From: a virus
Lineage: Duplodnaviria; Caudoviricetes
Reading direction: 5' to 3' (one strand)
Length of the DNA stretch: 55,279 nt
Virus record (IMG/VR): IMGVR_UViG_3300019768_000001
Span: 1 to 55,279 of that record
Position numbers and translations under genes: made by a program. The notes under the pieces were generated by a model. The model had not been told where the DNA came from and ran no database searches. It worked only from the letters and a program-made list of their open reading frames with translations. Positions 17,777 to 48,679 of the stretch are shown here, piece after piece (within the stretch, counting starts at the first letter, position 1; each line of letters begins with the position of its first letter).

Positions 17777-17827
17777 AGATAACACTGCAATCACAGGGCC
17801 GTTCCGCCCTGTATTTCTTTGTTATGT
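17777..17827 (+). mobile_element. attC-like recombination site H (solo)
   Basis: AGATAAC-actgc-AAT(C)ACAGGGC-cgttcc-GCCCTGTATT-tcttt-GTTATGT: R boxes, 5-nt unpaired spacers, bulged C in L''; 44/51 identical to site G. Confidence 0.75.
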
Positions 17828-17828: not shown

Positions 17829-18074
17829 TCAATACTTACAGGTTGAAATAGTGCCGTCTGCTTCAATTTTTGTTGTTATCCCACCTCGATACCTCGCCAG
17901 AAACATTATGTATTCAACTCCATCAATACATACCACCTCGTATTTACCGTCACCGCCTTGTATCGCGCGCCCAGTTTTTCCTATGTCGCTTCTTTCGCAG
18001 CCCGTCACACATAACAAAGCAATTAAAACGGACAAAGCAAACGCTCTTCGTTTCTTGTTTTTCATAATCTTCAA
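17829..18074 (-). CDS. Small putative lipoprotein
   Basis: Basic N-terminus, hydrophobic core, VTG-C lipobox-like motif; CIDGVEY. Confidence 0.55.
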   Translation of the reverse strand: MKIMKNKKRRAFALSVLIALLCVTGCERSDIGKTGRAIQGGDGKYEVVCIDGVEYIMFLARYRGGITTKIEADGTISTCKY

Positions 18075-18133: not shown

Positions 18134-18322
18134 TCACGCCGGTTTATTGGTATTCGACGTTAGTTGTGCTTTGTACAGCACGGCCATCTCGCACAGCAGG
18201 TTGAATCGCTCAGGATCAGACTTAAACATATGCTCAAGCTTTCTCTTGCTGGTCTTTGTTATCTCGACCAGCTCGGCAAGGCCCTTAAGCCCTGCCTGCT
18301 TTGCTATTACTGCCGGGGTCAT
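18134..18322 (-). CDS. Small HTH-like protein (paralog of 36394..36555)
   Basis: MTPAVIAKQAGLKGLAELVEIT...W/F-x-x-x-P-E-x-F pattern. Confidence 0.55.
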   Translation of the reverse strand: MTPAVIAKQAGLKGLAELVEITKTSKRKLEHMFKSDPERFNLLCEMAVLYKAQLTSNTNKPA

Positions 18323-18324
18323 GC

Positions 18325-18609
18325 TCAACTCCAATGCGTGCTTACACCAAATTGCTCTAGCGCATCGATAAACAATCGCCCGTTACCGCTATCTATACGA
18401 TCCTTCCATTCCTCAAAATGCTCGCTTGAATCCAATAAGATTGGCTTTATCCCGCGAACCTTTGCGCCGTTTGATTCAACCTGGATTGTTACCATGTCAT
18501 GGTTCATATATGCAGCGCAATTTACATTATGACCAATTCTATTGCCGCAAAAGCTTGCCGTAGTGCTAGCGTTACCGATATTTTCAATAAATACTTTACT
18601 CATGATCAA
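18325..18609 (-). CDS. Hypothetical protein
   Basis: ORF in minus-strand accessory operon. Confidence 0.5.
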   Translation of the reverse strand: MIMSKVFIENIGNASTTASFCGNRIGHNVNCAAYMNHDMVTIQVESNGAKVRGIKPILLDSSEHFEEWKDRIDSGNGRLFIDALEQFGVSTHWS

Positions 18610-27507: not shown

Positions 27508-29100
27508 TTATAGGACGGCAACTTTTCCAAGTAATTTTCCAGCCAGAATGTCAGCATCAAAGAACTCATCGCCCTCCATAGCTTCGCTGATTAACTTCGA
27601 TAGCTCACTAGACTTTGCGGCATTAAAAAGAACGTCTTCAGCAATAGCATCAACGTGAACTTGCTCAATATCAAAGCCAGCAGGATAAAGGCAGCCAGTA
27701 AAACCCTTTTTATCACGACTGTAAATCAAGCATCCAAGGCCTTCTAGATCATTCCTAAAAGTAACTACATTATCTCCCCCGCCTTTTGATACGCCCAAAA
27801 CAGTTACAACCTTGCCATTGAAGCTGTTAAACCGACTGTAATCTTCATGATATAAAACCACTAATTCAGCGCCAACAGGTGGCATATCACCGTTACGGAA
27901 CCAGTCAGATTCTACGACCTCCACATTAATCGTATTCTGATCAATACTCAGATCACCGATAGAGCCTTCAGCAACAACAGTAAGCCCCGCTATATCCGCC
28001 TCTGCCTGCTTTACACCATCATCAACCCACTCACCGGCATCTAATATGCTAGCTAGCTTTTCGGCTTGAGCGGCGCGAGTATTTTCTCTAGCATCAGCAG
28101 CATAAGCAGCAGCAGCAGCAGCATCAGCAGCAGCATAAGCAGCAGCAGCATAAGCAGCAGCAGCAGATCTTGCCTTAATTAACTCGTCTCTTGTCGCTTT
28201 ACCGTCAATATAATCAATCGTGACTTTCAAGCATTCTGAAACACGATCATCGTTAGACAGATGAGCCACTTGACACGCACACCACCACGCAAAACGCTTC
28301 CAGATATCGGAATACTCAGGCAGCGCACGAAACGTATAAATACAGCCTTTAACTCCAGGTTCAGATTTTATGATATCCGACATATTAAACTGATCATCGT
28401 CAGCTGTTGATTTTCCGCAGTATGCCAGCATGTTTTTCAGTAACTGCTTATTTCCGGTTTCTTTGATCTGATTTAGCGTAATTTTAATGGGCTTCATTTT
28501 ATCAATGCTCTCACCGCTGTCCGTATCGCCAAAGTTTTCCTCATAAGCTTCTTTCATAGACTGCCCCGGCTTGATTGGCGCTTTCTTCTCACCACCAAAA
28601 GCAATACGTTCGCGCTCCAAGGCTTCTTCTCTAGACATGATAATGCAAAACCCATCCATTTTTTCACCTTGACCGTAAAATACGTTCTCTTGCCTATATG
28701 CATCATAAGAAAGCCACTCGCCATTAGCCGTGTATCTAATCTCATGGGTATTATTATTCCAACTCTCAACCTTCGGCCTTCCGGTCATCTGCATCAGGCA
28801 TCTCTCGAACTCTGGTCGCTGACAAATAAACTGGCAATTGCCAGATATAACGCCCTCCATATTATGCCATGTGACCTCTTTTCCCATGTAAAGAGCGGCG
28901 TAATTAGACTCTTTATGCCATTTACCACAAGAAATACGCACAATCTGCTTTAACTCTTCGCTGAACCGTTCCATGCCATCACCCCTATACTGATTTAATT
29001 TATCTTGTTTCTTTCTTTGTTGAATACGGGAGAACAATCTCTTGGCCTCCCAGTCCCAGTTGTTAATATTTGATTTCAACGTTACGAACTTCTTTCGCAT
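27508..29100 (-). CDS. Mosaic multi-domain protein with Imm5-like/Ala-repeat module (likely start ~28974)
   Basis: FAWWCACQV...GKAT.DEL..ARSAAAAYAAAA; C-terminal W...G..PPVG module. Confidence 0.55.
   Translation of the reverse strand: MRKKFVTLKSNINNWDWEAKRLFSRIQQRKKQDKLNQYRGDGMERFSEELKQIVRISCGKWHKESNYAALYMGKEVTWHNMEGVISGNCQFICQRPEFERCLMQMTGRPKVESWNNNTHEIRYTANGEWLSYDAYRQENVFYGQGEKMDGFCIIMSREEALERERIAFGGEKKAPIKPGQSMKEAYEENFGDTDSGESIDKMKPIKITLNQIKETGNKQLLKNMLAYCGKSTADDDQFNMSDIIKSEPGVKGCIYTFRALPEYSDIWKRFAWWCACQVAHLSNDDRVSECLKVTIDYIDGKATRDELIKARSAAAAYAAAAYAAADAAAAAAYAADARENTRAAQAEKLASILDAGEWVDDGVKQAEADIAGLTVVAEGSIGDLSIDQNTINVEVVESDWFRNGDMPPVGAELVVLYHEDYSRFNSFNGKVVTVLGVSKGGGDNVVTFRNDLEGLGCLIYSRDKKGFTGCLYPAGFDIEQVHVDAIAEDVLFNAAKSSELSKLISEAMEGDEFFDADILAGKLLGKVAVL
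28086..28170 (-). repeat. GCT-based poly-Ala coding repeat
   Basis: (GCA)n on plus strand with periodic ATA/TCA interruptions. Confidence 0.85.
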
Positions 29101-30624: not shown

Positions 30625-30840
30625 CTCTATTACCCCTCAAAATGAATCCCCAGCTTATCACCTGGGATTTTAATTGGTATTAGACGTTAGTCTTTTTATC
30701 TCGCTTAAACTCAGTACACCGGACGATATTTGTACCGTCCTTCTCTCGACTGATCATCGGCATTTCATCAAACTTTAAACCGCTACAGTCTTTGTGCTTA
30801 TTGACGCATACGGCGCACATGCCGCCCTTGGGTTGGTGGC

Positions 30841-31563: not shown

Positions 31564-31567
31564 AATA

Positions 31568-31690
31568 AAATTCCATAAAAAAAGTCAGAGCAATCTCCCG
31601 GGTCGAAGAGGGTATACAGGAACCCACCGGAAAAATACTCTGACTATTTGTACCTGTATTTCAAATCACCACAGGCTTCGACACCATTTT
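31568..31690 (-). ncRNA. C4-antisense-like leader RNA of antirepressor 1
   Basis: Upstream GTCGAAG and TACAGG have complements CCTGTA and CTTCGAC in the loops of a long AGTCAGAG/CTCTGACT stem ending in a T run. Confidence 0.55.
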
Positions 31691-31924
31691 GCGATAACTC
31701 GAATTGAACTTAAATTATACCATCGTCTTAACCGGCTAACTATTCGACTTTATCGACAGGTTTACCGGGGTTTCTTTCGATTTTAGCACAGTGAAAGGTA
31801 TTCTTGCCGACGTAGAACCGGCCAAGCCTAATACATTCGTTAGCTATTGTGTTGTGCGCGATCACATACCCGATTACAGTACCGACAAATACCCACCAAA
31901 ACGCTTCATACCCCATATAACCAC

Positions 31925-32164
31925 CTAAATATTATCCCGAACTTTTAAACTATTTCCGCACAAATATAAACTTGGATGAGATTTCTTTAGCCTGCAAGCA
32001 ACTTTCCATGCCCTGCCTGCATTATTCCTTGCCTGCTGCTTTGGATTTATTGGTAATCCAAGGTGAAACAATCCCGAACGGTAAAAACTTTGGTTAAAGT
32101 AAGCTTTATGATTATTACTGCCGTCTTTCCACCACGTATTCCACAGATCATCTAAATTACTCAT
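31925..32164 (-). CDS. Hypothetical protein
   Basis: GGAG RBS. Confidence 0.45.
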   Translation of the reverse strand: MSNLDDLWNTWWKDGSNNHKAYFNQSFYRSGLFHLGLPINPKQQARNNAGRAWKVACRLKKSHPSLYLCGNSLKVRDNI

Positions 32165-32357
32165 ATCTCCACCCCTTCAAGCTCTACAGGCCCATAAAAC
32201 TTACCCTTTAACTCTTTTCGATTCAAACAGTCGTCCAACTCGTCGATGATACCCGGATGGTCTTTATTAACCCATACAACACGGGGCTAACCGTCCGGCA
32301 TTTTCCAGATATACATCATATCCGGTTCAAGATCTTCTTTGCTTACTTGTGGTAGCT

Positions 32358-32588
32358 TCATTGCTTTACTCTCCCCTCTTCTAGCTCAATTGCCCGCGCT
32401 ATCGCGTCGCGCGCCTCGTTTAAATCCTGCATCGTATCGCCTTTTCCGCGAATACCAGAACACAGCAGCTTCTTAATGGCGTGCTGCCGCGCAGGGCAGC
32501 TAACTTTGAACGCTTCCAGCACACAATAAACGTCAACCTTGCCGTCGATTAGTTGGATTTCTCTGTGGTACTTGTTTCCGCTTGTCAT
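32358..32588 (-). CDS. Conserved phage protein (DUF3310-related)
   Basis: VDVY.VL.AF.V..PA.QHA.KKLLC.G.RG..D..QDL.EA motif. Confidence 0.7.
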   Translation of the reverse strand: MTSGNKYHREIQLIDGKVDVYCVLEAFKVSCPARQHAIKKLLCSGIRGKGDTMQDLNEARDAIARAIELEEGRVKQ

Positions 32589-32831
32589 TTAAAACCCGCC
32601 CTTGTAGTGAAGATACAACAACCGACTCAGCACGCGGCCAGACCTCCCTGTTACTTTCTTTTCCATTTTCTCAGCGTGATTAATGGTCAGATTTGGATCG
32701 TATGCGGGGCACCCAAAAAAGCTATCTTCACCTAGAAACCGTTTATCACCGCCTTCATTATTCCAAGTGGGATCTACCTTGGCTTTTACATGGTCACAGT
32801 GACGCTCGCTTAACTCTAAAATTGTACTCAT
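32589..32831 (-). CDS. Hypothetical protein
   Basis: ORF abutting downstream gene. Confidence 0.45.
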   Translation of the reverse strand: MSTILELSERHCDHVKAKVDPTWNNEGGDKRFLGEDSFFGCPAYDPNLTINHAEKMEKKVTGRSGRVLSRLLYLHYKGGF

Positions 32832-32886
32832 TGCTTAACCCTATATGACTATTGGTGGATTATCTGAGTAAAAGGTGTAAGAACCC

Positions 32887-33315
32887 CTATCTCCAGTCTG
32901 TATCGTCCTTGTTTGATTTGCCTATATTGCAGTCATCACAAAGAATTTGCAGGTTATCAATATCAAGCTCTAACTCAGGTCTAAGCGATCTAGGCTTTAT
33001 GTGATCGACATGAATAACTACGCCATCTTTAGCGCCCCTCCCGCACAACATGCATTTTCCGCCGTGATTCGACAGAACTTTATATCGAAGCTCTCGCCAG
33101 TCTCTACTTTTGAAAAAATCAGAACCAGACGATCCGTAGGTAAATGGAACTGGATTCTTCTCACCGGTAAGACGGTTAAGATTCCTGGTAAGTTGGCGCA
33201 GAGAATCCTTTACACCCCTTGGATTGTCGTAAAATCCAGATTCAAGCAGCTTTGTTTTCTGCTCTATCTTGAACCTTAACGTCTTCGCTCGTTCTTCTTT
33301 GCTTTTTCTTGCCAT
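32887..33315 (-). CDS. HNH endonuclease
   Basis: WRELRY.VL...CMLCG...HVDHIKPRS..PELEL...NLQILC..CN.GKSN. Confidence 0.9.
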   Translation of the reverse strand: MARKSKEERAKTLRFKIEQKTKLLESGFYDNPRGVKDSLRQLTRNLNRLTGEKNPVPFTYGSSGSDFFKSRDWRELRYKVLSNHGGKCMLCGRGAKDGVVIHVDHIKPRSLRPELELDIDNLQILCDDCNIGKSNKDDTDWR

Positions 33316-33716
33316 TTCAGACCACCTTTATTTTCTTGTTTATATATATCCAGAGTAGGTTTCTAGGTTTAGATAGGCATAACAACTCTAAGGAAACCAA
33401 TATTAATCAGTTAACCTTAGCTGTTATACCTGATATATCCGTCGTAGTGTGTCTTAGGATATCAAGGCAGTCTATTCGATCATGGTCTAATAAACTTAGG
33501 TCAGTATGGTCAATGAACCACCAGAGTCATGCGCTAGACCTACACCTGTTAAGGCAACTCTTAGGCGCTCCCGCTTGCTCTCTGTGCCATGTAGCGGGAT
33601 TGTCACCAGTACGCACCGGTTTTAACCGACATACTGGTCTAGCTGATTACGTGGGATTGCTCGGAGTAATCCCTTTAACCGTTTCTGGCTTCGGGACGTG
33701 GGGCGGGATTTCAGGC

Positions 33717-33815
33717 ATAAAAAAAGGTCTTTTAGGTGTGCCCCTGTGAGAGGAAGCGGAATTAACCGCAAAGACACACTTAAAAAACCTTTCTCGCTAT
33801 CTGGCTCTCACCCCA
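33717..33815 (-). ncRNA. C4-antisense-like element
   Basis: GTGAGAG/CTCTCAC and AGCG/CGCT complements around a long stem ending in a T run. Confidence 0.45.
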
Positions 33816-34007
33816 ATCAGCACTAACAATTATACTTTATGGTTAGATTTAATCAACAAATCTTTGAAGCACACCCTGCGGGGTTAATTGCCACCGGCGG
33901 TGCTTGGCCCCGATAGCAAAAACAGGATGCGCCCCAAAGCCCCTAAGAATCTTCATTATGAACCGCAATAGTTACTTTGCAATTAGCCTTTGGTATAATT
34001 GATAAAT

Positions 34008-34115
34008 CGGCTTCGCACCCGTATATTTCAACAGTTAAAAATAGGAATTGCATTCTAGCTTTGGGCTACTGTTGGCCGTGCGAACAAAGCTTTGATTGCA
34101 ATTCCTTTTTTTTTG
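34008..34115 (+). ncRNA. C4-antisense-like leader RNA of antirepressor 2
   Basis: TTCGCAC/GTGCGAA and CAACAGT/ACTGTTG complements; AGGAATTGCA/TGCAATTCCT stem plus T run. Confidence 0.55.
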
Positions 34116-34125
34116 GAGTTTTTCC

Positions 34126-34815
34126 ATGAACGATTTAGTTTTACCCGCCAATACACAGACAATGACCAGCCTAGAGCTGCGCGATATTATCAATAGCTCT
34201 CGCCAGAGCAGCAATGAACCCAAGGTTCGCAATGATCAGCTTATTGATAGAATTAAAGATGAGCTTGAAGGTGAATTAGGGGTATGCAAAAAAATTGCAC
34301 ACCCCCAAAGCGGCGTTGAAATGAAATACTACGACCTGACGATTGATCAATGCACCCTGGTTGGTATGCGTGAATCTAAGTCTGTCCGCCGTAACGTGCT
34401 GGCAAAGCTTAAAGAGCTGGAATCAGGCCAGAAAAAGATACCTCAGTCTTTCGCAGAGGCTCTACAACTTGCAGCAGACCAAGCCCTTCAGATTGAGCAG
34501 CAGGAGCAACAACTCGCCATTGCAGCCCCGAAGGTGGACTTTTACGATACTGTTACAGGGTCAGATGATACCGTTGACATGCTTGGAGCGGTGAAAGTGC
34601 TTAACCTTGGCTACGGACGCACTACCCTATTCAAAAAACTGCGCGAGAAAAAGGTTCTGCGTAAGAGCAATCAGCCGTACCAGCGGTATATTGATTCTGG
34701 ATATTTCCGAGTTGTCGAGTCAACTTGGACTGATGATAAAGGCGATTCTCACGTACACTTTAAAACAGTGGTATACCAGAAGGGCTTAGACTACATCAAA
34801 AAGATTCTGGCCTAG
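34126..34815 (+). CDS. Antirepressor, KilA-C domain (start MNDLVLP)
   Basis: MTSLEL N-terminus, PQSFAEALQLAAD linker, APKVDFYD...PYQRYIDSGYF..KG. Confidence 0.85.
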   Translation: MNDLVLPANTQTMTSLELRDIINSSRQSSNEPKVRNDQLIDRIKDELEGELGVCKKIAHPQSGVEMKYYDLTIDQCTLVGMRESKSVRRNVLAKLKELESGQKKIPQSFAEALQLAADQALQIEQQEQQLAIAAPKVDFYDTVTGSDDTVDMLGAVKVLNLGYGRTTLFKKLREKKVLRKSNQPYQRYIDSGYFRVVESTWTDDKGDSHVHFKTVVYQKGLDYIKKILA

Positions 34816-34861
34816 TAGAAACAAAGAAGCCCTACAAGTGAGGGCTTTTTATACTTTATGG

Positions 34862-35104
34862 CTAGACTTTTTCAACAAGTTCGAATGTTTTTATTGTTTC
34901 TGCAATATGGAAGTGGCCATCATACTTGTAACCTGGCGTTTTATGGTCAGCCAAAACCTTATCAGGGAATCTACGCATAAACTCTTTCGTTGAATAATCA
35001 TGGCCTGACACCACTTCACCTGTAAGCCTTGTTTCTTCAGTGTACTTAACCTCAAACCCAAGCTTCTCACATAGCGCAATTAACAACTTCATTTCATCGC
35101 TCAC
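34862..35104 (-). CDS. Hypothetical protein
   Basis: ORF with RBS. Confidence 0.5.
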   Translation of the reverse strand: MSDEMKLLIALCEKLGFEVKYTEETRLTGEVVSGHDYSTKEFMRRFPDKVLADHKTPGYKYDGHFHIAETIKTFELVEKV

Positions 35105-35124
35105 AATACACCCCTTATTTATGG

Positions 35125-35349
35125 CTAGCCTTTGGCAAGCTCTTCAGCTAACCATTTGGAATAATTTGCCGCCTTCTCTGCGTCACGCACAGGGTTGTCG
35201 GGCGTTTTATGCATCATTCGACACTGATATTTAAGCGCATTGCCCAGCAAATAACCCTGATACTGCTCTGGTGTCAGCTTGGCCTTAATCACATCAAGCG
35301 TTTCGATACCACCTGCATCGTAGTAGCTGCTTTTTACGTCTTTGCTCAT
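35125..35349 (-). CDS. DUF3310 protein
   Basis: Y..GGIETLDVI...GYL.GNALKY..R..HK...D.EKA..Y. Confidence 0.8.
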   Translation of the reverse strand: MSKDVKSSYYDAGGIETLDVIKAKLTPEQYQGYLLGNALKYQCRMMHKTPDNPVRDAEKAANYSKWLAEELAKG

Positions 35350-35672
35350 ATCAATCTTTTCCTTCCTTGATTACCACAACAGTTGGCGCTGGAGGCTCAG
35401 GCTTCGCTTTAAATATGAAGTACAAAATAATATTAATCAGGATCAGAGGCGGAAACAGAAACAGCTCAATGATACCGGTAAAAATCAACAACAAATTCCA
35501 TAAAATACGCATCACTTTTCCACCTTTTCAACTGGATTTCTTGCTCGAGGCAATCGCTTGTCTATAAAGTTCATCCATATATCACCAATACACCCAATAA
35601 AAAGAAGAGGCACTATTGGCGCTATAAGAATAAATCTTATAGCCCACCAGCCAACTACGATTTTACCACTGC

Positions 35673-35876
35673 TCATTTTTCCACCATTTCACATTTTGCC
35701 GTGCTTGTTACTGACTCAACACCTAGCAGCCTGGACACATCAACAGAAGGCCAATATAGGAAGTTTTCCGCCACCCTTTGGCATTTATCAAGATCATAGT
35801 AAACGGTCTTGCTGATCGATGGAGAGTTGATATAGCCGGTTAAATTAAGCGTTAGAGTCAGGGCTAGTATTATCAT
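35673..35876 (-). CDS. Small exported/membrane protein
   Basis: Signal-like N-terminus, two Cys; its GAGG RBS lies inside attC-like site D. Confidence 0.5.
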   Translation of the reverse strand: MIILALTLTLNLTGYINSPSISKTVYYDLDKCQRVAENFLYWPSVDVSRLLGVESVTSTAKCEMVEK

Positions 35877-35878
35877 TG

Positions 35879-35929
35879 CAATAACACCTCAATAACATAG
35901 ACCTTCGGCTATGTATTTCTCTGTTATAT
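35879..35929 (+). mobile_element. attC-like site D
   Basis: CAATAAC-acctc-AAT(A)ACATAG(A)CC-ttc-GGCTATGTATT-tctct-GTTATAT; two bulged bases on the L'' arm. Confidence 0.8.
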
Positions 35930-35931
35930 TG

Positions 35932-36057
35932 TTAAAACTCTAACATGGTATATTTTCTGCACTCCCAGAATCCTGGCGGTGTAGTCCAGTCGGCCCAGCG
36001 TCTGCGGACAAAAACTTTAAATTTAACGCCTTTATGTGTTCTGTATACAAGCTCCAT
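35932..36057 (-). CDS. Cassette ORF, 41 aa (MELVYRTHKGVKFKVFVRRRWADW...)
   Basis: Fills the segment between sites C and D; not in track. Confidence 0.45.
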   Translation of the reverse strand: MELVYRTHKGVKFKVFVRRRWADWTTPPGFWECRKYTMLEF

Positions 36058-36068
36058 GACAACCCTAA

Positions 36069-36130
36069 ATATAACAATGCAATCAAACAGATAACTCGTA
36101 ACCTCGTTACTCGTTATCGCCGGGTTATGT
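36069..36130 (+). mobile_element. attC-like site C
   Basis: ATATAAC-aatgc-AATCAAAC...GATAAC/GTTATC and GTAAC/GTTAC inner stems...GTTATGT; L pairing imperfect. Confidence 0.7.
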
Positions 36131-36313
36131 TACCTTTTTAATATTTAGTGTAATTTCCACCAGTTCAGTGTTTTCTCTATCATGCTTGTCTGCTACTTTT
36201 TTTAGGTATCGCCTAGCTGGTGTAGCGCTATCAAATATAAGCATGTTTTGGTTTTCTCCATCAACTCTAATCTGTTTCGTTTTACTATCAATCAGTACAA
36301 ATGAACTTTTCAT
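36125..36313 (-). CDS. Cassette ORF, 62 aa (MKSSFVLIDSK...)
   Basis: GAGG RBS; stop TAA lies within the R box of site C. Confidence 0.55.
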   Translation of the reverse strand: MKSSFVLIDSKTKQIRVDGENQNMLIFDSATPARRYLKKVADKHDRENTELVEITLNIKKVT

Positions 36314-36340
36314 TTTTTTAAGCCTCTTGTGTTTTCGGTA

Positions 36341-36399
36341 ACATAACAAGTAAAATCAAAGCTGACGCGCTACGCTTGAAGTTTATTTGGTGGTTATGC
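36341..36399 (+). mobile_element. attC-like site B
   Basis: ACATAAC-aagtaa-AAT(C)AAAG...GCG-tac/cta-CGC...GTTTATT-tggtg-GTTATGC; resembles site F. Confidence 0.75.
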
Positions 36400-36555
36400 G
36401 CCAAGCTCGGCAATACACCCAAGCAGCACAATTCTAAACAGCTCTGGTTTATCTCTATGCCAGTTGCCTAGTGTTTGTAGGCTTTGTCCTGTTAGCTCAG
36501 ATACTTGCGACAGGCTTTTAAGGCCAGCCGCTTTTGCTTGCTGTGATGGGGTCAT
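36394..36555 (-). CDS. Cassette ORF, 53-aa HTH-like protein (MTPSQQAKAAGLKSLSQVSELTG...)
   Basis: Not in track; ATGA-coupled to upstream ORF; stop in R box of site B; paralog of 18134..18322. Confidence 0.6.
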   Translation of the reverse strand: MTPSQQAKAAGLKSLSQVSELTGQSLQTLGNWHRDKPELFRIVLLGCIAELGA

Positions 36556-36764
36556 AGCAACCCCCGCTTCTCAGCATCTTTTAAAAATTCGTCTTGCTGC
36601 TCGACTGTCATGTGGCCAGCTATAGCAAGCTGCACTAATGCCATTAGGCGGTCGTCTTCCAGCTCACCTGCAAATTCTTTAAACATACCGTTTAGTTTGT
36701 TTGATCTTACTAGGCCGTCATTAATCATTTTATTTTGCTCCGTTGCGTTAGTTAGTAAGTACAT
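36552..36764 (-). CDS. Cassette ORF (likely start 36728, MINDGLVRSN...)
   Basis: GGAG RBS before ATG at 36728. Confidence 0.5.
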   Translation of the reverse strand: MYLLTNATEQNKMINDGLVRSNKLNGMFKEFAGELEDDRLMALVQLAIAGHMTVEQQDEFLKDAEKRGLL

Positions 36765-36829
36765 TGTTACAAACTATTTGCTCCTTGCCTAGTCTTTTTG
36801 CAAATTACTTTAAATTAATTGTAGAAAGC

Positions 36830-36882
36830 GCATAACAAAGCAAGGCAATCGGATGCAAGCACCGTTGCTCGCAAAGATTATT
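36830..36882 (+). mobile_element. attC-like site A (degenerate R')
   Basis: GCATAAC-aaagc-AAGGCAATCGG(A)TGC-aa-GCACCGTTGCTC-gcaaa-GATTATT; shares AACGGTGC..TCCGATT core with site E. Confidence 0.65.
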
Positions 36883-37312
36883 TGCTCTATTTGATGCGCC
36901 GACTATTTACCAATCAGCACATCGAATAAAACGCCCTGCCGCAGGAATCCGGGCCAGACCATGAAAAGAGGAAAAATATCAAAACCCCTTGCCTGCTTGC
37001 ACATTGATTCGGCTCTGTGTGCTCCACTGGAGATTCCGCGCATCATGTAAATCCAATGGACGGCAGCTTCAAAGCTACACAAAGCTAATTATCGCGGACA
37101 TAATGCCAGATCCGCGCCCTGATATAGGGTATTAATGTGACTGTTAGCGCCACCCTCCCCGCTGTGACAATATTGTCGGAAAGGTGACGCTAAGGAATGC
37201 GCTCTGTCGTTCCCATAATTTTATACACAACCACAATGCAATTTATTGAACAAACACACTTTGGTTAATGTTTAAGTTATGGCAAAGCGCATTATTTAGC
37301 GCAACTAACAGT

Positions 37313-37531
37313 CTACGGCAAGCTATCTTCGAGCTCCTTTTTTTCATCTTCGTCTATCAATCCTTTTTCGTACATTTCAACAATAAAACCATTAAACCCG
37401 CTGACAATATTGGTAAAATAACGACTTGAAACATGCGGGCCTAAACAAACCACTACAGGAATAAGAATCGCCGCTAAAATAGCGAATACAGCAAGATTAA
37501 AAAATAACCATGCCCCTATTATATTTTTGAT
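37313..37531 (-). CDS. 72-codon membrane protein ORF with ATC at the start position
   Basis: AAGGAGG RBS, then ATC-AAA-AAT..., TM helix, acidic tail, TAG. Confidence 0.45.
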   Translation of the reverse strand: MKNIIGAWLFFNLAVFAILAAILIPVVVCLGPHVSSRYFTNIVSGFNGFIVEMYEKGLIDEDEKKELEDSLP

Positions 37532-37549
37532 ACCGCCTCCTTGTTTAAT

Positions 37550-37620
37550 TGGCAGCCCTATCAGGAATCGAACCTGAATCGTTACAAATCAGCCACACTG
37601 ATACAGATGACGGCGCTCGT
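37550..37620 (-). ncRNA. tRNA-derived fragment (T arm + acceptor 3' strand + CCA)
   Basis: TCAGG-TTCGATT-CCTGA-TAGGGCT-G-CCA; no recognisable D or anticodon arm. Confidence 0.45.
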
Positions 37621-37732
37621 ACACCGCGAAATAACGACACAACCAGGATGGCAATTGATCTTATATGCTAATTTTTCAGACGAGCATAATTAATGATTGA
37701 TCATTGCCGCCCTATAATGTTCGGGCTTTAAA

Positions 37733-37809
37733 TGGGGCCACAAACGGGACTCGAACCTGCGACCTCTCGCTTAGGAGTCGAGCGTTCTATCCAACTGAAC
37801 TAATAGCGC
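37733..37809 (-). tRNA. tRNA-Arg(CCT)-like, acceptor stem poorly paired (possible pseudo-tRNA)
   Basis: GTTC-AGTTGGATA-GAAC D arm, CTCCTAA anticodon loop, GGTTCGAGTCC T loop, encoded CCA; about 3 acceptor mismatches. Confidence 0.6.
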
Positions 37810-37814
37810 TTAAG

Positions 37815-37888
37815 AGCTGAAGGCCGGATTCGAACCGACGCAATACCAATGCGAACAAAGGCGGGTTTTCCAGTTTCCCCACTTCAGC
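37815..37888 (-). ncRNA. tRNA-like element with aberrant anticodon arm
   Basis: Perfect GCTGAAG/CTTCAGC acceptor, GGG/CCC D stem, GTCGG-TTCGAAT-CCGGC T arm; anticodon stem does not pair; no CCA. Confidence 0.55.
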
Positions 37889-38230
37889 TTAAATTGACCA
37901 GACTCTTCTCAGAGTGTAGAGGAATGTTAGATAACCCCTAACCGGGTAGATTATCACCTCCTTACTTCGCCCCGTGATATTAGAATTAAAACGGTTACAG
38001 CTTTTCGGTTGGCTAAATACAGTAAAATTATGAGGCTGCACCTATCATCTTTTCAGACCTGATGGATAGCCAGGAGTCTTTCCATGTAAGATTTTTGGCG
38101 ACTCTTTAACGTGCTATTTCCTTCCCGTTGCCCTTCACTGTATTGGTGTAGGCACCTGCCAAATTGATCCAGTTAGGAGCGTCCATCAGCAGAAACCTAC
38201 CCAATACACACCGCTTAGCCGGTGAATCTA

Positions 38231-38392
38231 TGCATTAAAAATCAAGCTGAAGACCAAATTCCCAACCGATGATCGCGTCTACCTAATGACGCCTACTCAG
38301 GCTGCAGCCTGCTTATAGCCCACCCCGTCGACTAGGAGGGTGCCAGCGCCATGTATACTCACAACACTGAAAACAGCTTGATTTTTAATGCA
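38231..38392. repeat. 19-bp perfect inverted repeat enclosing a structured interior
   Basis: TGCATTAAAAATCAAGCTG ... CAGCTTGATTTTTAATGCA. Confidence 0.8.
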
Positions 38393-38742
38393 CACTGGTT
38401 ACGCCAGTGAATCGGATTTACTCTTATCTGATTGTGCTTTATTGGCCCGCACTTACCGCCGTAGTGGTCTAACGTTATCCTAACCATATTCAACCTGTTC
38501 AACTGCACCAGGCTTATGAATAGGCATCCAACTTTTTGACATTGGATCAGGTCTTTCTCTATGGCGATTCATACAGGCAAGTTGCAATAAAAATAATAAC
38601 ATCTCACCTTCCTTGTTAAGTCTGCCAGATTAACCGCTGGCAGCTCCGGTTTTGTCGGGTAACTCCGGCAACGAATGGCAACCCGCTGCCTGCAAAACAA
38701 TAATAGCAAATTAATTTAAACAGGTGGTATTAGACGTTGGTA

Positions 38743-38919
38743 TTAGTCCGGCTTAAACCTTTCTTTTCCGGTGCCATCACAGCCGCCACAAGGCGGGCTT
38801 CCATTGTGGTCATAAACACCTGATCCGCTACAAGCAGAACAAGGCCTCAACTTCCATCCCTTTACGTTTTTTTCATAGTATTCAGTACGCCGCTTCTTTC
38901 TCTCTTTGAATGTCGCCAT
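38743..38919 (-). CDS. Small Zn-finger protein (DnaJ-type CxxCxGxG repeats)
   Basis: CSACSGSG...CGGCDGTG. Confidence 0.65.
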   Translation of the reverse strand: MATFKERKKRRTEYYEKNVKGWKLRPCSACSGSGVYDHNGSPPCGGCDGTGKERFKPD

Positions 38920-38920
38920 C

Positions 38921-39388
38921 TCACCACCTCGCCTTATACTGTTCATAAAAATCTAAATACGGCTCTGACCACGTTACGTTATGCTCAACGCCCCATGCGT
39001 ACAGAAACGCTATAAAATCGCCAGCCTCACCTTTTCTAAACTCGGTAGTGCTAGCGCTCATGGTGACAGCCCTTTTGCCGTCTAGGCTTATTACAGTACG
39101 GCTTGGATGGCTTAGTTTCTGACCTTGGTTGTTTATTTCCATTTCAAACTGATCAACCAGCAGCCTTTTCCAGATATCGGCACCGTACTGCCTGCCTTCA
39201 ACCTCAACCTGACCCGCAATATCCCGAAACATCGCGTGGTACTTCTTTTCCATCAGCCGGGATTTCTTAACATCACGAATCAGGATCTCAACAGGCCCGC
39301 CAGTGACGTATGTTTTAACTACCTCCCAAACCTTACCCATCTGAGGCCGTAGATTGTCCAGCGATACCACAATTGTTATCGGCTTCAT
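38921..39388 (-). CDS. ninB: NinB-family recombination protein
   Basis: YHAM..DIA.QV...WK.LL...S.DG..V....STT.F...E..DFI.FLYAWG.E..V.WS. Confidence 0.75.
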   Translation of the reverse strand: MKPITIVVSLDNLRPQMGKVWEVVKTYVTGGPVEILIRDVKKSRLMEKKYHAMFRDIAGQVEVEGRQYGADIWKRLLVDQFEMEINNQGQKLSHPSRTVISLDGKRAVTMSASTTEFRKGEAGDFIAFLYAWGVEHNVTWSEPYLDFYEQYKARW

Positions 39389-39389
39389 A

Positions 39390-39740
39390 TTACCGCCACG
39401 TTCGATAGTTGATCACATCGTCAACAGATTGCACGGCAACACCATTAACGGCAGCCGCGAAAGTTTTTATCTTCCCCGCCCTATAGCCAGCGTCATCTAA
39501 CACTCTCATCATTTCAACATGCTCAGCCGTCAACTTAGCATTTGGATGATTCTCGCCCTGTCGCTTTTTAGTGTTTTTCATGTAGCTTAGCTTTTGGCAT
39601 ACCGAGTTGTAAGACCTCTGTAAAAACTCAGCCATTTCTTTCCTGCTCATCAACGGGTTTTCTTCTAAAAAAGAAACCTCTTCATCGCTCCATATTTTCT
39701 GCGCCATACTCTCACCTATTTTTTGATTATTGTTAGCCAT
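39390..39740 (-). CDS. Small DNA-binding protein
   Basis: WS.EE..FL myb-like start; GENHPNAKLT...RTWR motif. Confidence 0.6.
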   Translation of the reverse strand: MANNNQKIGESMAQKIWSDEEVSFLEENPLMSRKEMAEFLQRSYNSVCQKLSYMKNTKKRQGENHPNAKLTAEHVEMMRVLDDAGYRAGKIKTFAAAVNGVAVQSVDDVINYRTWR

Positions 39741-39770
39741 CCTTGGCAGGTTGTTAATTAGACTTTTTGG

Positions 39771-39992
39771 TTAAGCCTTCTCACCTCTACCGACAAACCA
39801 GTCGATAGCATCACAGATAAGCGGATCTTCCAACCAATTTTCCAGTTCACGATTCATCGCTCTATCCAGATAAACAACAGGGCCGCAGTAGTGGTGCCAC
39901 TCAAGAAACACCCTCCGGCCATCAGCCAGCCTTAACCTGTAATGCATTGAGTTTGTGCAGATAATACCGCCATGAAATACCGTACACGTCAT
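39771..39992 (-). CDS. Hypothetical protein
   Basis: EWH.YCGP motif; RBS. Confidence 0.55.
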   Translation of the reverse strand: MTCTVFHGGIICTNSMHYRLRLADGRRVFLEWHHYCGPVVYLDRAMNRELENWLEDPLICDAIDWFVGRGEKA

Positions 39993-39996
39993 ACTC

Positions 39997-40764
39997 TCAC
40001 CCCTTTAACATTGCTTTCATACGGTCAATTGCGTCTTGACCCTTGATACCTTCAAAACCTTGATCCTTTGCCTGCTTGTTACCGTCGCGGATCATTTTAT
40101 CGGCCATAGCGCGGCCCTGATTGTGCTGTGCGTCGTTTTCTAGCAGAGTCTGGCCGTTAGCCATAGCTTTTGCCAAAGAGTTGTACTCAGTAGCAAAGCG
40201 GGCCTTTACGGTCTTTTGCTCTGACTGGCTTGATGCCCTCGCAATATCGTATGACCCAACTCGTTTTACAGCTTCTCTGATAGCTGGATGACTCCATTTT
40301 CCGGCGCTAGGCATTCCAGCCTTCTTTTGAGCCTCTAAGAACGCCTCGTCAAGAGAAGGAAGTCCAAGCTCTTCTGCATCTACGTCACACAAAGAAACAA
40401 ACTCAGGAATCGTAGGCGGCCACTTAGGATGTCGTCGAATACTTTTCCCTATAGCAACCTGTATTCTATTTCTCTCCTGCTTGCCAATGGCTATCATCCA
40501 GAGAGAGTGCGGGTCTGTCGGCGGCATATCCCCGTGATCCCTGCTCCACTTGTCCCCGTATATCTCCATCATGCGGCCCCAGAACATCTTGGCATTGCTG
40601 GCTACTTCCTGAGAGCATTTGTCGCTCCCATTCGTCAAGTTTGGCTTGCCGTTCTGCATGCTTATCGCCTTGGTGCTGGCTATTGCCGCTCTGCCTATTT
40701 CCGCTGCTGATTTCATCGCTCCACCGCTCCTGATTGAAATATGTTGTCGGGTGCATTTCAGCAA
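39997..40764 (-). CDS. Replication protein P-like helicase loader (likely start MKSAAEI)
   Basis: WPPT.PEF..LC...LGLPS..EA..EA...WSHPA; overlaps initiator gene as in lambda O/P. Confidence 0.75.
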   Translation of the reverse strand: MLKCTRQHISIRSGGAMKSAAEIGRAAIASTKAISMQNGKPNLTNGSDKCSQEVASNAKMFWGRMMEIYGDKWSRDHGDMPPTDPHSLWMIAIGKQERNRIQVAIGKSIRRHPKWPPTIPEFVSLCDVDAEELGLPSLDEAFLEAQKKAGMPSAGKWSHPAIREAVKRVGSYDIARASSQSEQKTVKARFATEYNSLAKAMANGQTLLENDAQHNQGRAMADKMIRDGNKQAKDQGFEGIKGQDAIDRMKAMLKG

Positions 40765-41365
40765 AACCCCTTTGCCCAGACTTCAACCGGGCCTGAACAT
40801 CAATGAATAGTTTTCCAGCAAAGTCCACAGGGTCTAACTTGTTATTCTTTGCGTAAGATTTGAACTTGGCCAAAGCTGGCTTCTTGCCGACTTTCTTCAT
40901 GCCAGCACACCAATAAGTTTCAAATGCTTCAGCGCACACATCATCGAATGATGATGAATTATCTTTATATAACTCTTTGTTATCTTCTTTGTTATATAAG
41001 GGCACTTTATGACCCTTGCCAGATGTCGTTTCCGACCCTTGCGCAAGGGCGCTTTCCGACCCTTGCTGAACAACGTTGTAATACTTAGCTTTATTTACGG
41101 TCATCATCCTTTTTTTCCCGTAATTCGTTACTTTGGTATCCCGAAAAATCCAACCTTTATCGCTAAGCGACTTTAGAACCGACTTAACACGACGCTCAGA
41201 TAAATCAAAAAACTCAGCAAGATACTGATCACTGGCAAAGCACGGGCCTGTTCTTGAAAGAGCATCGATCTCAGCAAGAAATAAAACCTCCTGCTTAGTG
41301 ATCTCCGTTGAGCTCCAAAGCTCTACTGGTATCCAGATTCCTGTAAACCCCCTTTCATCGCTCAT
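40466..41365 (-). CDS. Replication initiator (lambda O-like, N-terminal HTH)
   Basis: FTGIWIP...CFASD.YLA.F; KKVGKK.A...HPTTYFNQERW; internal iterons. Confidence 0.8.
   Translation of the reverse strand: MSDERGFTGIWIPVELWSSTEITKQEVLFLAEIDALSRTGPCFASDQYLAEFFDLSERRVKSVLKSLSDKGWIFRDTKVTNYGKKRMMTVNKAKYYNVVQQGSESALAQGSETTSGKGHKVPLYNKEDNKELYKDNSSSFDDVCAEAFETYWCAGMKKVGKKPALAKFKSYAKNNKLDPVDFAGKLFIDVQARLKSGQRGFAEMHPTTYFNQERWSDEISSGNRQSGNSQHQGDKHAERQAKLDEWERQMLSGSSQQCQDVLGPHDGDIRGQVEQGSRGYAADRPALSLDDSHWQAGEK
41011..41066. repeat. Probable origin iterons
   Basis: GACCCTTGC at 41011, 41034 and 41058 inside the initiator gene, next to an AT-rich tract. Confidence 0.6.
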
Positions 41366-41856
41366 TTCATATGCTCCATTGTGTATTCTGCAAAATGCTC
41401 AATATCCACGTCTTTAAACTTTTTGATATCAAATAAATCAAAATACCTTCTGGCCACGTGAAGAAATCGGCCTTTATTCTCCATGCATAGATAAAAGAAA
41501 TAATTATTTGAAGGCTCACATAACGGGCTATGCGAACACATAGATGCTACAAATGAAGGCCATGGAACAAAGAAGTTTCTTTCTCCAATATAGTTCGCGG
41601 CATCAAGGGCCTCTTGCGGCGAAACGGAAAACATCTCACCATGAACAACCCTATCCTGAAAGAATCGCTTCAGCATGCTCTCCCTTTGTGATGGGTTTGT
41701 TACCTCTAAGCTCCAAAACAATGAGAACGTATAGCCTTTGTAGCACCGCTTTAGCTCTGAAACCCGATCTTCTGGACGCTTTCTTGTGAACCCGATCTTG
41801 CACCAGTTAGGATTTTGATCTACCGATGCTATGTAGATATTTCCGGTAAATATCAT
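41362..41856 (-). CDS. T5orf172/GIY-YIG-type nuclease domain protein
   Basis: GNIYI...KIGFT.K.PE.R..EL...GE.F. Confidence 0.75.
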   Translation of the reverse strand: MIFTGNIYIASVDQNPNWCKIGFTRKRPEDRVSELKRCYKGYTFSLFWSLEVTNPSQRESMLKRFFQDRVVHGEMFSVSPQEALDAANYIGERNFFVPWPSFVASMCSHSPLCEPSNNYFFYLCMENKGRFLHVARRYFDLFDIKKFKDVDIEHFAEYTMEHMK

Positions 41857-41903
41857 ATATAATTACTCGTATGTGTTTTGGCCCGGTTCGCCGGGTTTCT
41901 TTT

Positions 41904-43819: not shown

Positions 43820-43975
43820 ATGGCTATAAAGAAAAACAACCCGTCCTCTTATATGAATGACGAGCAGCTGAGGCTGGCAACAGAAGCCTCAGTTAAAGAA
43901 GGTAGAAGTCTGTCATCTTTTATTCGTATGGCAGTAGAAGAAAAAACAAACAAGGTGTTAGGGGTGAAAAAATGA
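43820..43975 (+). CDS. Ribbon-helix-helix-like regulator, 51 aa (not in track)
   Basis: GAGG RBS; A..EGRSLSSFIRMAV.E pattern; ATGA overlap with next gene. Confidence 0.65.
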   Translation: MAIKKNNPSSYMNDEQLRLATEASVKEGRSLSSFIRMAVEEKTNKVLGVKK

Positions 43976-44322
43976 GCAGGGCTTACACTGTGTACAAGGG
44001 TGAAATTAAAGGTAGGCTGGTTTACATAGGAACAACAATACAAAAGCCAAGCAATAGATTTAGATGGCATAAAAATAATGGTAAACCATTCGATTTTACT
44101 GTTTTGAGTCAGCATGAAACATCAGAAGAGATGCTAGAAGAAGAGTTAAGGTTGATAAAAAAACACAAGCCAAAATACAACAAGATAAGACACAGAAAGC
44201 AAAATCTAAATGTTAAATTATCAAAGGAGGATCTAGATAAAAGAGTGGGAGATAGCGAGTGGTGTCAAAGCTGCTTAAAGCGTCGAGTAAATAATGGTTA
44301 CTCTAAGTGTTATTACTGTTAA
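43972..44322 (+). CDS. GIY-YIG family nuclease
   Basis: YTVY...VYIGTT....R.RWH...E..LI....PKYN. Confidence 0.7.
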   Translation: MSRAYTVYKGEIKGRLVYIGTTIQKPSNRFRWHKNNGKPFDFTVLSQHETSEEMLEEELRLIKKHKPKYNKIRHRKQNLNVKLSKEDLDKRVGDSEWCQSCLKRRVNNGYSKCYYC

Positions 44323-45769: not shown

Positions 45770-46273
45770 ATGGATGAATATGATTTATATAACAACGGAA
45801 AAAGCATACCAGAGGTAAGCGATGAGACAGGGATACCAAGATCAACACTGAGATTCAGGTTTAAAAAAGCAGGAATATTAAGGTCTAGGGCTGATGGCAT
45901 TAAAAACGCATCAAAAAACGGTCGATTAGGTTCAGGTCTTAGAGGTAAGAAAAGGGTTTTCACAGAAGAGTGGAAGAATAATATTTCAAAAGGAAAAACC
46001 GGAAAGGGGCTTGGTGTATCTGTAAAGCCTAGTGGATATATAGAGATAACGATGGGAGAAAACAAGGGTAGGTTGGAGCATGTTGTAATAATGGAGTTGA
46101 TAATAGGAAGAAGGCTTGCGTCAAACGAGTGCGTTCATCATAAAGATGAAAACAGGGCCAACAACGACCCTGAAAACCTTCAGTTAATGACAAGAAGCGA
46201 GCATGCATCTTTGCATGCTAAGCAAAATATAAGCAAAAGAAATAGAGATAAGAGAGGTCGTCTTTGTGGCTAA
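45770..46273 (+). CDS. HNH homing endonuclease
   Basis: N-terminal HTH/NUMOD-like; EH.VIME..IGR.L...E.VHHKDE.R.NN..ENL.LMT.SEH..LH. Confidence 0.85.
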   Translation: MDEYDLYNNGKSIPEVSDETGIPRSTLRFRFKKAGILRSRADGIKNASKNGRLGSGLRGKKRVFTEEWKNNISKGKTGKGLGVSVKPSGYIEITMGENKGRLEHVVIMELIIGRRLASNECVHHKDENRANNDPENLQLMTRSEHASLHAKQNISKRNRDKRGRLCG

Positions 46274-47657: not shown

Positions 47658-47870
47658 ATGAGCAAGATAGCAAGCGTTTACGATAAGAATTCAAAGTCAG
47701 TGATTTTAGATATGCGCCATCCGAACAAAGATGTGCCTAGACCTGAAATTGTGATCGACACAGAAACAGAGAAGTACGCCGTTCCGGGCGGGAAGACATT
47801 TGAGCTGCTTCGAGATGCGCGTGTTGTAGCAACTGAGATGTTTAGTAAGGCGGGTTTTGTTTGCCAGTAA
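47658..47870 (+). CDS. Hypothetical protein
   Basis: RBS; stop TAA lies in the R' box of site E. Confidence 0.5.
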   Translation: MSKIASVYDKNSKSVILDMRHPNKDVPRPEIVIDTETEKYAVPGGKTFELLRDARVVATEMFSKAGFVCQ

Positions 47871-47924
47871 CCATATAAATAAACGGTGCAGCGCAGCAAG
47901 TCCGATTTAATTTGCTTGTTATGC
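47865..47924 (-). mobile_element. attC-like site E
   Basis: Minus: GCATAAC-aagca-AAT(T)AAA(T)CGG...CCGTTTATT-tatatg-GTTACTG. Confidence 0.7.
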
Positions 47925-47946: not shown

Positions 47947-48120
47947 ATGGGCGTTAGAATGAAAAAGACAGATCGAGAATGGCACGAGTACCCATTAGGG
48001 ACTAAAGCTCACGCCGTTATGGGTGGTTATTGGGAAAGAGTTAAGGGTGGCTGGAAATGGTGTACAGGTTCTACCTTTCCTACTCCCGGTGCTGACTGGC
48101 GAGTAATAGAATTACCATAG
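47947..48120 (+). CDS. Cassette ORF, 57-aa Trp/Gly-rich protein (MGVRMKKTDREWHEYPLGTKA...)
   Basis: Not in track; G-rich RBS; fills the segment between sites E and F. Confidence 0.55.
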   Translation: MGVRMKKTDREWHEYPLGTKAHAVMGGYWERVKGGWKWCTGSTFPTPGADWRVIELP

Positions 48121-48122: not shown

Positions 48123-48182
48123 ACATAACCCCTTAAACAAACGCAGAGCGTAGCGATGTAGCTTTGCTTTAAATTGTTATAT
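48123..48182 (-). mobile_element. attC-like site F
   Basis: Minus: ATATAAC-aattt-AAA(G)CAAA...TTTGTTT-aaggg-GTTATGT; resembles site B. Confidence 0.75.
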
Positions 48183-48194: not shown

Positions 48195-48629
48195 ATGGAT
48201 TACTTAAAACTATTGCAAGAAAGCTACAGAGAAACAGCAGAGAATAGGGATGACCCAACTTTAGAAAAACTAGAGTTCTTGGCTGAGGGTATTTTCGGAT
48301 TCACGACATACGAGAATGTGGTTTCTTCTACGATGGCGCAAAAGGCACTAGAAGTATGCAAGGCGATAAGTGACAAAAAGACATTTGATTACATTGCCAG
48401 TGAAGAGGGAAATCTTTGGTATCTGGTAATGGTTAATATGCCGTTTTTTGAAAACAGGCTTAATTGGGGTACTTCTATTCGTGGTGCTTGGTGGGATCTG
48501 TGGGGCAATAAAGAATTCACCATTGAGAGTTGCGAACTGTTTGGCGGTGAACAGATACTAGAGCTTAAATTGAATGACAGTGAATGGGTTAAGTTTATAG
48601 AAGCTATGATTAAGTTCGCGGAAGAGTAA
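48195..48629 (+). CDS. Cassette ORF, 144-aa hypothetical protein (MDYLKLLQESY...)
   Basis: GGAG RBS just after site F; stop abuts site G; WGTSIRGAW motif. Confidence 0.65.
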   Translation: MDYLKLLQESYRETAENRDDPTLEKLEFLAEGIFGFTTYENVVSSTMAQKALEVCKAISDKKTFDYIASEEGNLWYLVMVNMPFFENRLNWGTSIRGAWWDLWGNKEFTIESCELFGGEQILELKLNDSEWVKFIEAMIKFAEE

Positions 48630-48679
48630 TATAACAAAGAAATACAGGGCGGAACGTCCCTGTTATTGATGTGTTATGC
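48629..48679 (-). mobile_element. attC-like site G
   Basis: Minus: GCATAAC-acatc-AAT(A)ACAGGG(A)CG-ttc-CGCCCTGTATT-tcttt-GTTATAT. Confidence 0.8.

Follow-up and report, generated by a model that had tools for sequence, protein, structure and literature searches.

Arrays of attC sites without an integrase are already known from phages. These clusters of attC sites lacking integron integrases (CALINs) consist of at least two attC sites and small open reading frames (ORFs) of unknown function, with no phage integron integrase; in the part of the source on which we draw, typical arrays run in the same direction, and five of six phage attC sites recombined with attI1 as substrates of IntI1 (Qi et al. 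2023, PMC9892861). Here we analyse the window, a 55,279-bp complete viral record (IMGVR_UViG_3300019768_000001, hereafter W), and above all its array 1 (35881-36880), in which four attC-like sites delimit three cassettes. We conclude that array 1 is probably a CALIN, since its attC-type sites sit in a complete phage genome without an integrase; its form is reversed and miniaturised, and the integron integrase of a host probably recombines it.

Compared with the CALINs in the cited part of PMC9892861, the genes of W-type arrays lie antisense to the attC-top-like strand at 8 of 8 loci, W has two arrays as well as solo sites, unrelated phages share families of sites, and the sites measure only 43-60 nt. 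What is new is the uniform reversed polarity, the very short sites and the presence of a distinct (type I) hairpin at an attI-like position, and also the occurrence of several arrays per genome, their sharing among unrelated phages and a cargo derived from phages. A literature search, whose scope did not extend to the supplementary lists of CALIN phages in PMC9892861, found no other paper centred on integrase-less phage attC arrays.

The arrays resemble sedentary chromosomal integrons in their TAAC/GTTA boxes, 5-nt spacers, bulge register, complementary cassette ends and non-matching ends of individual sites. As in the integrons of Vibrio and Shewanella, site families are reused with unrelated genes. 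In contrast to the phage arrays, those of Vibrio and Shewanella have an adjacent intI and attI, genes mostly in the sense of the top strand and sites of 56-125 nt, and the phage sites have no significant sequence match to Vibrio attCs.

A second comparison concerns PeSL elements, small stem-loops flanking non-essential genes of T4-type phages, for which modular shuffling and mini-circles have been described (Arbiol et al. 2010, PMC2839356). The attC-like sites of phages may have a similar role in genome plasticity. However, PeSLs as presented in the part of that paper used here combine a promoter with a terminator, exist as near-identical copies and move by homologous recombination, whereas the sites described below lack such signals, are dissimilar and have an exchange core of 4-5 nt.

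Cassette ends in array 1 and its relatives

W was compared with the viral contigs G1, G2, G3, L062, L066, L028 and L029, among which G1 is a 55.9-kb mosaic relative of W. A structural pattern built from three W sites (S1, D and S9; type I) retrieved three other viral contigs and five further metagenome contigs. The counts given below refer to the 19 sites and the 12 cassettes that were tabulated for W, G1 and G2.

A preliminary description of the window had reported four sites in array 1, separated by three segments with extended inverted repeats at their ends, and these repeats are found exactly where it placed them. In cassette 1, GTTATATT (35923-35930) pairs with AATATAAC (36068-36075) at 8/8 positions; in cassette 2, GTTATGTTACC (36124-36134) pairs with GGTAACATAAC (36337-36347) at 11/11; in cassette 3, GTTATGCGC (36393-36401) pairs with GCGCATAAC (36828-36836) at 9/9. 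The two ends of one site had been said to pair less well than the two ends of one segment, and in array 1 the ends of individual sites indeed do not match. Two ORF stops fall inside R boxes as described, namely in the TTA of GTTAT at 36125-36127 and 36394-36396. Circles of about 200, 270 and 490 bp had been expected, and a cut between G and TT (written G↓TT below) predicts 201, 269 and 482 bp.

Statistically, the pairing of cassette ends stands apart. Beyond GTTA, the two ends of one cassette (n = 12) share complementary runs of 4, 7, 5, 6, 2, 2, 5, 1, 4, 5, 4 and 5 nt (mean 4.2; at least 4 in 9/12), whereas runs between the two ends of one site (n = 18) measure 0-2 nt with a mean of 0.9. Non-cognate ends (n = 312) have a mean of 1.12, with 3.2% reaching 4, and when 12 such pairs were drawn at random 100,000 times the observed sum of 50 was never reached. 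The rule is seen in five arrays of W, G1 and G2 plus one array of L062, where a thirteenth cassette has an 11-nt end repeat (GTTATATTTTC). The variant cores CTAAC and GTTAG seen in G2 change together across the cassette and not across the site, which would place the exchange point inside the box, at a position compatible with G↓TT.

Two real integrons served as references: that of Vibrio anguillarum carried by phage MK672802 and that of Shewanella fodinae, whose integrase scores 434.7 bits, above the model cut-off. In the former, cassette-end runs are 5, 5, 4, 1, 6, 0, 5, 6, 7, 7, 4 and 4 nt, with runs of at most 1 nt within a site; in the latter they are 2, 5, 6, 0, 0 and 6 nt.

The motif ATAAC followed at 30-60 nt by GTTAT occurs 9 times in W against 1.89 expected, a number reached in 0 of 100 shuffles. 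The genome-wide count of GTTA...TAAC inverted repeats is not above that of shuffled sequences (17 vs 12.6), and a hairpin scan based on energy alone does not discriminate (5 vs 1.6, 4 vs 2.4, 5 vs 0.9 and 3 vs 1.1 in shuffles). The signal is thus the link between repeats and sites, not the number of repeats alone.

Building the predicted circles in silico and folding them gave a summed free energy (dG) of -133.1 vs -96.6 kcal/mol. Eleven of the 12 cassettes are more stable as circles and one is equal, with R stems of up to 10 bp; in the case of cassette 2, the dG is -11.2 for the circle and -5.4 in the array. The proposal that these are true cassettes, in which circularisation would restore a paired R box, is supported by circle folding, core co-variation, the controls from real integrons and the attC-type fold of the sites, with its bulge in the register of real attCs.

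The last site of the array differs at its 3' end, where the terminal GATTATT noted before was confirmed at 36875-36881. In the array the R box of site A is unpaired, and when the site is joined in silico to TTATGCGC it folds as a complete site, whose R stem measures 9 bp and whose L stem is bulged (dG -15.4). Integron integrases can insert cassettes outside att sites at G↓WT, in so-called attG secondary sites (Loot et al., bioRxiv 10.1101/2022.09.11.507474). With its G↓ATTAT, the junction that follows site A agrees with the attG consensus given in the cited part of that preprint; an attG insertion would leave the insert without a complete site at its far end, but array 1 begins with an intact site D. 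Judged by its letters, GATTATT may equally well be a secondary-site junction of the G↓WT type or a one-base change (decay) of GTTAT.

Table 1. Coordinates of sites and cassettes in W
Feature	Positions	Strand	Description
Site D	35881..35927	+	type I hairpin; first site of array 1 on the attC-top-like strand; predicted cut G35923↓T35924
Cassette 1, 201 bp	35924..36124	+	41-aa ORF 35932..36057 (-); site C at its end; no Pfam match
Site C	36071..36128	+	attC-like; predicted cut G36124↓T36125
Cassette 2, 269 bp	36125..36393	+	62-aa ORF 36125..36313 (-), its stop being the TAA of the box; site B at its end
Site B	36343..36397	+	attC-like; predicted cut G36393↓T36394; resembles S8 of array 2 read on the other strand
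Cassette 3, 482 bp	36394..36875	+	overlapping (-) ORFs of 53 aa (36394..36555, helix-turn-helix-like) and 70 aa (36552..36764); site A at its end
Site A	36832..36880	+	last site; attC-like fold intact up to G36875; 3' box G↓ATTAT
S8'	47867..47922	-	array 2; top-like strand is -, where its 3' box is GTTAC (GTAAC on +)
S8	48125..48180	-	array 2 site
S9	48631..48677	-	type I site of array 2
S1	17779..17825	+	solo type I site between the lipoprotein gene and the next (-) gene
S2	33379..33427	.	hairpin; ATAAC/GTTAT ends pair mutually 8/9; possible solo site, polarity undecided

Fold, polarity and the proposed route of exchange

All 19 tabulated sites begin with xTAAC and 18 end with GTTAx, site A ending with GATTA, so that the inverted R'' and R' boxes of attC sites, with conserved AAC and GTT, are present. 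Phage sites and the top strands of real attCs were folded alike, with the TAAC/GTTA pairs forced, and share one layout: a 4-bp box, an internal loop of 3-4 nt, 4-5 bp, a bulge at position 14 and 3 bp, often followed by a second bulge at position 18 and then by a variable stem-loop. Unpaired bases are commoner in the 5' arm of the top-like strand in 15/18 phage sites (one reverse, two equal) and in 13/20 real attC top strands (one reverse, six equal). The phage sites hence have the unpaired central spacer and the extrahelical bases on one arm of the L stem that are characteristic of attC. The start of a cassette is complementary to the R'' box of its own site, as in integron cassettes cut at G↓TT. 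Given attC identity, four sites in 1 kb and three in 0.8 kb, with no integrase in 55 kb, constitute CALINs.

Usual attC sites are about 57-141 nt long, and the phage sites lie at or below the lower limit. Loops and inner stems vary and also co-vary (ACAGGG/CCCTGT, ACATAG/CTATGT, ATGCGG/CCGCAT), with two pairs changed on both sides (18/500 shuffles). The mean column identity among sites is 57%, and the cores alone are invariant. A MAFFT alignment of 18 sites gave no predicted pairs in RNAalifold because their middle parts do not align, and an Rfam search returned no attC match.

Polarity was assessed at eight loci: S1, both arrays of W, the array of G1, both arrays of G2, x1 in G3, and L062. 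At every one of them the attC-top-like strand is antisense to the local genes. The order of a standard cassette, that is an ORF in the sense of the attC top strand and then a site, is absent from the phage loci, whereas cassette genes in the two real integrons examined are mostly sense to the top strand. Because of the reversed polarity, the coding strand of a phage cassette reads site, ribosome-binding site, ORF. By manual count, 13 of the 18 ORFs preceding a site end with a TAA inside the box.

Pfam searches with the cassette proteins found no family except for one HD_4 protein in G2. A 137-kb phage contig encodes a homologue 59% identical to the 144-aa protein of the S8-S9 cassette, and another phage contig encodes one 72% identical to the 53-aa helix-turn-helix protein of cassette 3, in both cases without flanking sites. 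Judging from such homologues, two or more of the antisense ORFs are genuine genes. The cargo consists of phage genes. The helix-turn-helix-like protein of cassette 3 (36394..36555, -) has a small paralogue in W at 18134..18334 (-), about 300 nt from S1; homologues exist in G3 and L028, and the gene overlaps its upstream partner in W and L028.

Sites of the type I class (S1, D, S9 and related ones) are conserved among phages unrelated to each other and also occur singly, the other sites being diverse. Site D belongs to the family of S1 and S9. In 6/6 arrays the type I site forms the 5' end on the top strand, which is the position of attI in integrons. In W (35895-35880, -) and in G1 (after 55206-55252) the hairpin contains a GAGG that precedes the ATG of the following gene by 9-10 nt, and on the antisense strand it looks like an intrinsic terminator, a hairpin followed by ATTTCTTTGT.

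W proteins are almost absent from G2, G3 and L066, yet near-identical type I sites are common to all of them, which points to a factor acting in trans. No recombinase of the phages' own is available for this role: W, G1, G2 and G3 have zero matches to Phage_integrase (PF00589), integron integrase (TIGR02249), resolvase and Y1_Tnp (PF01797), so that none of the four records encodes a tyrosine, serine or Y1 recombinase. As no intI was found by the TIGR02249 and PF00589 searches, none of the four holds a complete integron. Hairpin elements of the REP/RAYT or IS200/IS605 kind were dismissed, there being no PF01797 match in these records.

The route of exchange that we propose starts with one strand, which would fold into an R box (TAAC/GTTA), an unpaired spacer of 3-5 nt, an L stem from which one or two bases are flipped out, and a variable loop. 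The infected cell would provide a tyrosine recombinase like the integron integrases, and this enzyme would cut the 3' box at a predicted position within G-T-T-A, between G and TT, and because the cut falls there the sequence past the G would belong to the next cassette. Excision as a circle would rejoin the two complementary ends of the cassette. Such circles could re-enter at other sites, the conserved type I hairpin being a likely landing pad, and the cassettes may be mobile at present.

The recombining, bottom-like strand would be the coding strand, unlike in bacterial integrons. Genes in W run leftward from ~42.9 to 12.6 kb and rightward from ~44.0 to 49.4 kb. With divergent operons flanking a replication region at ~40-41 kb, replication would use the bottom-like strand of both arrays as its lagging-strand template; this strand would also be the non-template strand of transcription, and either circumstance might favour folding.

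In our judgement the attC-cassette interpretation as a whole is likely to be correct, the most likely agent being an integron integrase of the host that acts on the coding strand in its folded form. A more far-reaching version, which we offer tentatively and think less likely than not, is that of a "reverse integron" shared by the phages of one community: a pool of miniature, attC-flanked cassettes of phage genes that might dock at the type I hairpin and be moved among unrelated integrase-less phages by the integrase of the infected cell.

If a host integrase does shuffle these cassettes, integron recombination would be a route of gene exchange between phages, besides its part in bacterial adaptation, and some of the sharp mosaic joints around small phage accessory genes would be explained. 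The strict reversed polarity would also permit a direct test of strand choice, pitting replication against transcription as the process that exposes the coding strand. Since homologues of cassette genes lack sites elsewhere, reverse-integron genomes would show cassettes being made; phage genes that have an attC here and none in other phages would offer material on how cassettes arise, which to our knowledge is an unsolved step of integron biology.

Competing explanations and traces of exchange

Several observations weigh against a host integrase working on attC cassettes. The array is not linked to any integrase, and the single-stranded DNA-binding protein (SSB) of W has its best match among bacterial genomes in Shewanella fodinae, at 51% identity, too weak for naming a host. 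Among 185,579 bacterial and archaeal species, each represented by a single genome, the type I pattern is nowhere matched exactly, and a type II-like pattern is at background in 151 Shewanellaceae genomes. Hidden Markov models built from Vibrio attC ends rank a G2 site and S8' first, with non-significant E values of 1.2 and 2.2. The end rule itself has exceptions: the G2 cassette a4-a3 breaks it, and two cassettes match only if a mismatch or gap is allowed. The antisense genes at 8/8 loci are an atypical cassette layout, and for type I sites the bulge rule, which we followed, and the rule of spacer purine-richness point to opposite polarities. It also counts that the homologues of two cassette genes in other phages carry no sites.

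Comparison with G1 adds further difficulties. Relatives had been proposed as a source of empty sites, and none was found: between the homologues of W 35876 and 36929, G1 has an unrelated 290-bp gene without sites. Of the W/G1 junctions at array 1, one touches site D at its outer edge and the other falls 52 nt past site A, neither at G↓TT. Elsewhere in G1, a stretch 49/49 identical to W 35880-35928, including site D, is embedded in unrelated DNA on both sides. A site with foreign DNA on both flanks would not be produced by a single cut at one box and is partly unexplained. At array 2, W and G1 are homologous again from 4 nt past the GTTAT of S9, beside an 11-nt remnant of what in G1 is the end of a RusA-like gene. 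In view of the junctions at both arrays, the arrays as wholes came and went by ordinary mosaic replacement, and what speaks for site-specific exchange is found within the arrays themselves.

The sequence GTCTAATACCG occurs in W at the end of the NinG gene (47591-47601) and just after S9 (48685-48695). The latter copy is the remnant, corresponding to the last 11 nt of the RusA-like gene that G1 retains.

The exchange could have been carried out by phage enzymes with no integrase at all, extruded hairpins being cut by NinG/Rap or RusA and the ends rejoined at short cores by phage annealing protein and exonuclease. W encodes NinB, NinG and a PDDEXK exonuclease, G1 has a RecA-dependent nuclease, and ORFs that appear RusA-like by eye, with no family search made, adjoin the arrays in G1 and G2. 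By reasoning, complementary cassette ends are expected from any exchange within the cores, in either box, and the foreign DNA on both sides of site D fits exchange at both boxes. However, cruciform cutting gives no role to the fixed polarity or to the base flipped out in the attC register, a 5-nt core is very short for annealing, and no such nuclease or annealing protein is common to W and G2/G3 at E 1e-4. We consider this explanation unlikely.

About equally unlikely, in our view, is that the arrays are fossils, assembled once by an integron system, then inherited and immobile, with their hairpins kept as RNA structure, as a translation signal or as a block to antisense transcription. The damaged 3' box of site A and the replacement of a whole module in G1 would suit immobility, and the terminator-like antisense strand of type I hairpins, together with the GAGG that they place shortly before the following ATG in W and G1, would suit such retained functions. 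Assembled contigs of two runs, possible source samples, contain no joint at either array and no circle junction, although rare circles are not visible in contigs, so that this weighs in neither direction; the only two joints listed are cross-matches between S9 and S1. Against fossils stand end repeats that are still exact over up to 11 nt. Moreover, low-depth contigs from the same samples have S8'-like and S8-like sites with other flanks, and together with the identical site at different loci of W and G1 this suggests recent exchange. Chromosomal integrons, too, reuse one attC family with many genes.

Far less probable is that the boxes are Xer (dif-like) half-sites and that host XerC/XerD moved the segments like pdif modules on plasmids. 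The flanks GCGCATAA and TTATGTTA are reminiscent of what we take to be the two arms of the dif consensus. However, the boxes lie 30-50 nt apart with no short spacer between them, and beyond TAAC/GTTA the flanks differ per cassette (TATT, TGTTACC, TGCGC, TTCGG, GCTG, TTTTT and others). Because they differ in every cassette, there are no conserved XerC/XerD arms of the kind that mark Xer/dif-type modules.

Ordinary intergenic terminators, PeSL-type cassettes shuffled by homologous recombination, or chance repeats are the most improbable origin of all: the hairpins are indeed intergenic and PeSL cassettes also form mini-circles according to the cited part of PMC2839356, but promoter-like and terminator-like matches are not enriched (4 vs 5.1 and 3 vs 1.4 expected in one region; 2 vs 3.5 and 3 vs 1.9 in the other), the sites of one array have only their cores in common, too little for homologous exchange, and chance is excluded by the site-count shuffles and the end-pair permutation. 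The sigma-70 promoter with terminator and the near-identical copies that typify PeSL cassettes were not found.

Other sites and the genome of W

Array 2 comprises three sites over 47867-48677 on the strand opposite to array 1. The ends of its S8'-S8 cassette, with a 57-aa ORF (47947..48120), are GTTATGCTGC and GCAACATAAC, which pair at 9/10 positions, and those of its S8-S9 cassette, with the 144-aa ORF at 48195..48629, are GTTATATTAC and GTAATATAAC (10/10). The stop of a 70-aa ORF (47658..47870) falls inside the box of S8'.

Three further candidates were dropped as sites: S7 (42959-42999), without the TAACA/GGTTA features; S10 (48959-48998), internal to a gene conserved in G1; and a 43-nt stretch at G1 55251-55293, through which a 198-aa ORF reads. 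As for S2, a hairpin with TAACAAC...TGTTAT ends keeps its position in W (33379-33427) and G1 (14222-14263) with a different inner stem, and it lies within a conserved non-coding stretch upstream of an HNH gene.

W 18007-18060 (+), the DNA of the signal peptide of the lipoprotein ORF 17829..18074 (-), resembles a type II site in its 5' half (ATAACAAAGCAATTAAAACGGAC), and the flank ACACATAAC of this half-site is complementary at 9/9 positions to GTTATGTGT after S1. Here an N-terminal extension may have overprinted a decayed site.

The ends of W are 123-bp direct terminal repeats, and its gene content is lambdoid, with NinB, NinG, a lambda-P-like protein, the PDDEXK exonuclease and SSB. In searches for relatives and a host, megablast of W 30000-42000 gave no match to named phages, NinB peptides retrieved no relatives, the 530-aa ORF 27508..29100 gave only partial tblastn matches of 23-33% and no host clue, and NinG in Protein Atlas is assigned to "viruses" only, with no host.

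Four genes in W are homing-endonuclease-like: 41362..41856 (-), 43972..44322 (+), 45770..46273 (+) and 32887..33315 (-). By Pfam they include T5orf172/MUG113, GIY-YIG and HNH_3 members, and one of the four ORFs is HNH-like by eye only. Rfam recognised two tRNA genes (38 and 35.7 bits) at 37736-37809 and 37815-37888 (-), which ARAGORN did not report; the pair sits in an ORF-poor region of ~1.8 kb (36.9-38.7 kb) that is partly conserved in G1.

Finally, L029, whose SSB is related to that of W, has a single site of the same build (ATAACAACACG...AAGGGTTAT) at 7181-7243 (-), about 0.8 kb downstream of ssb.

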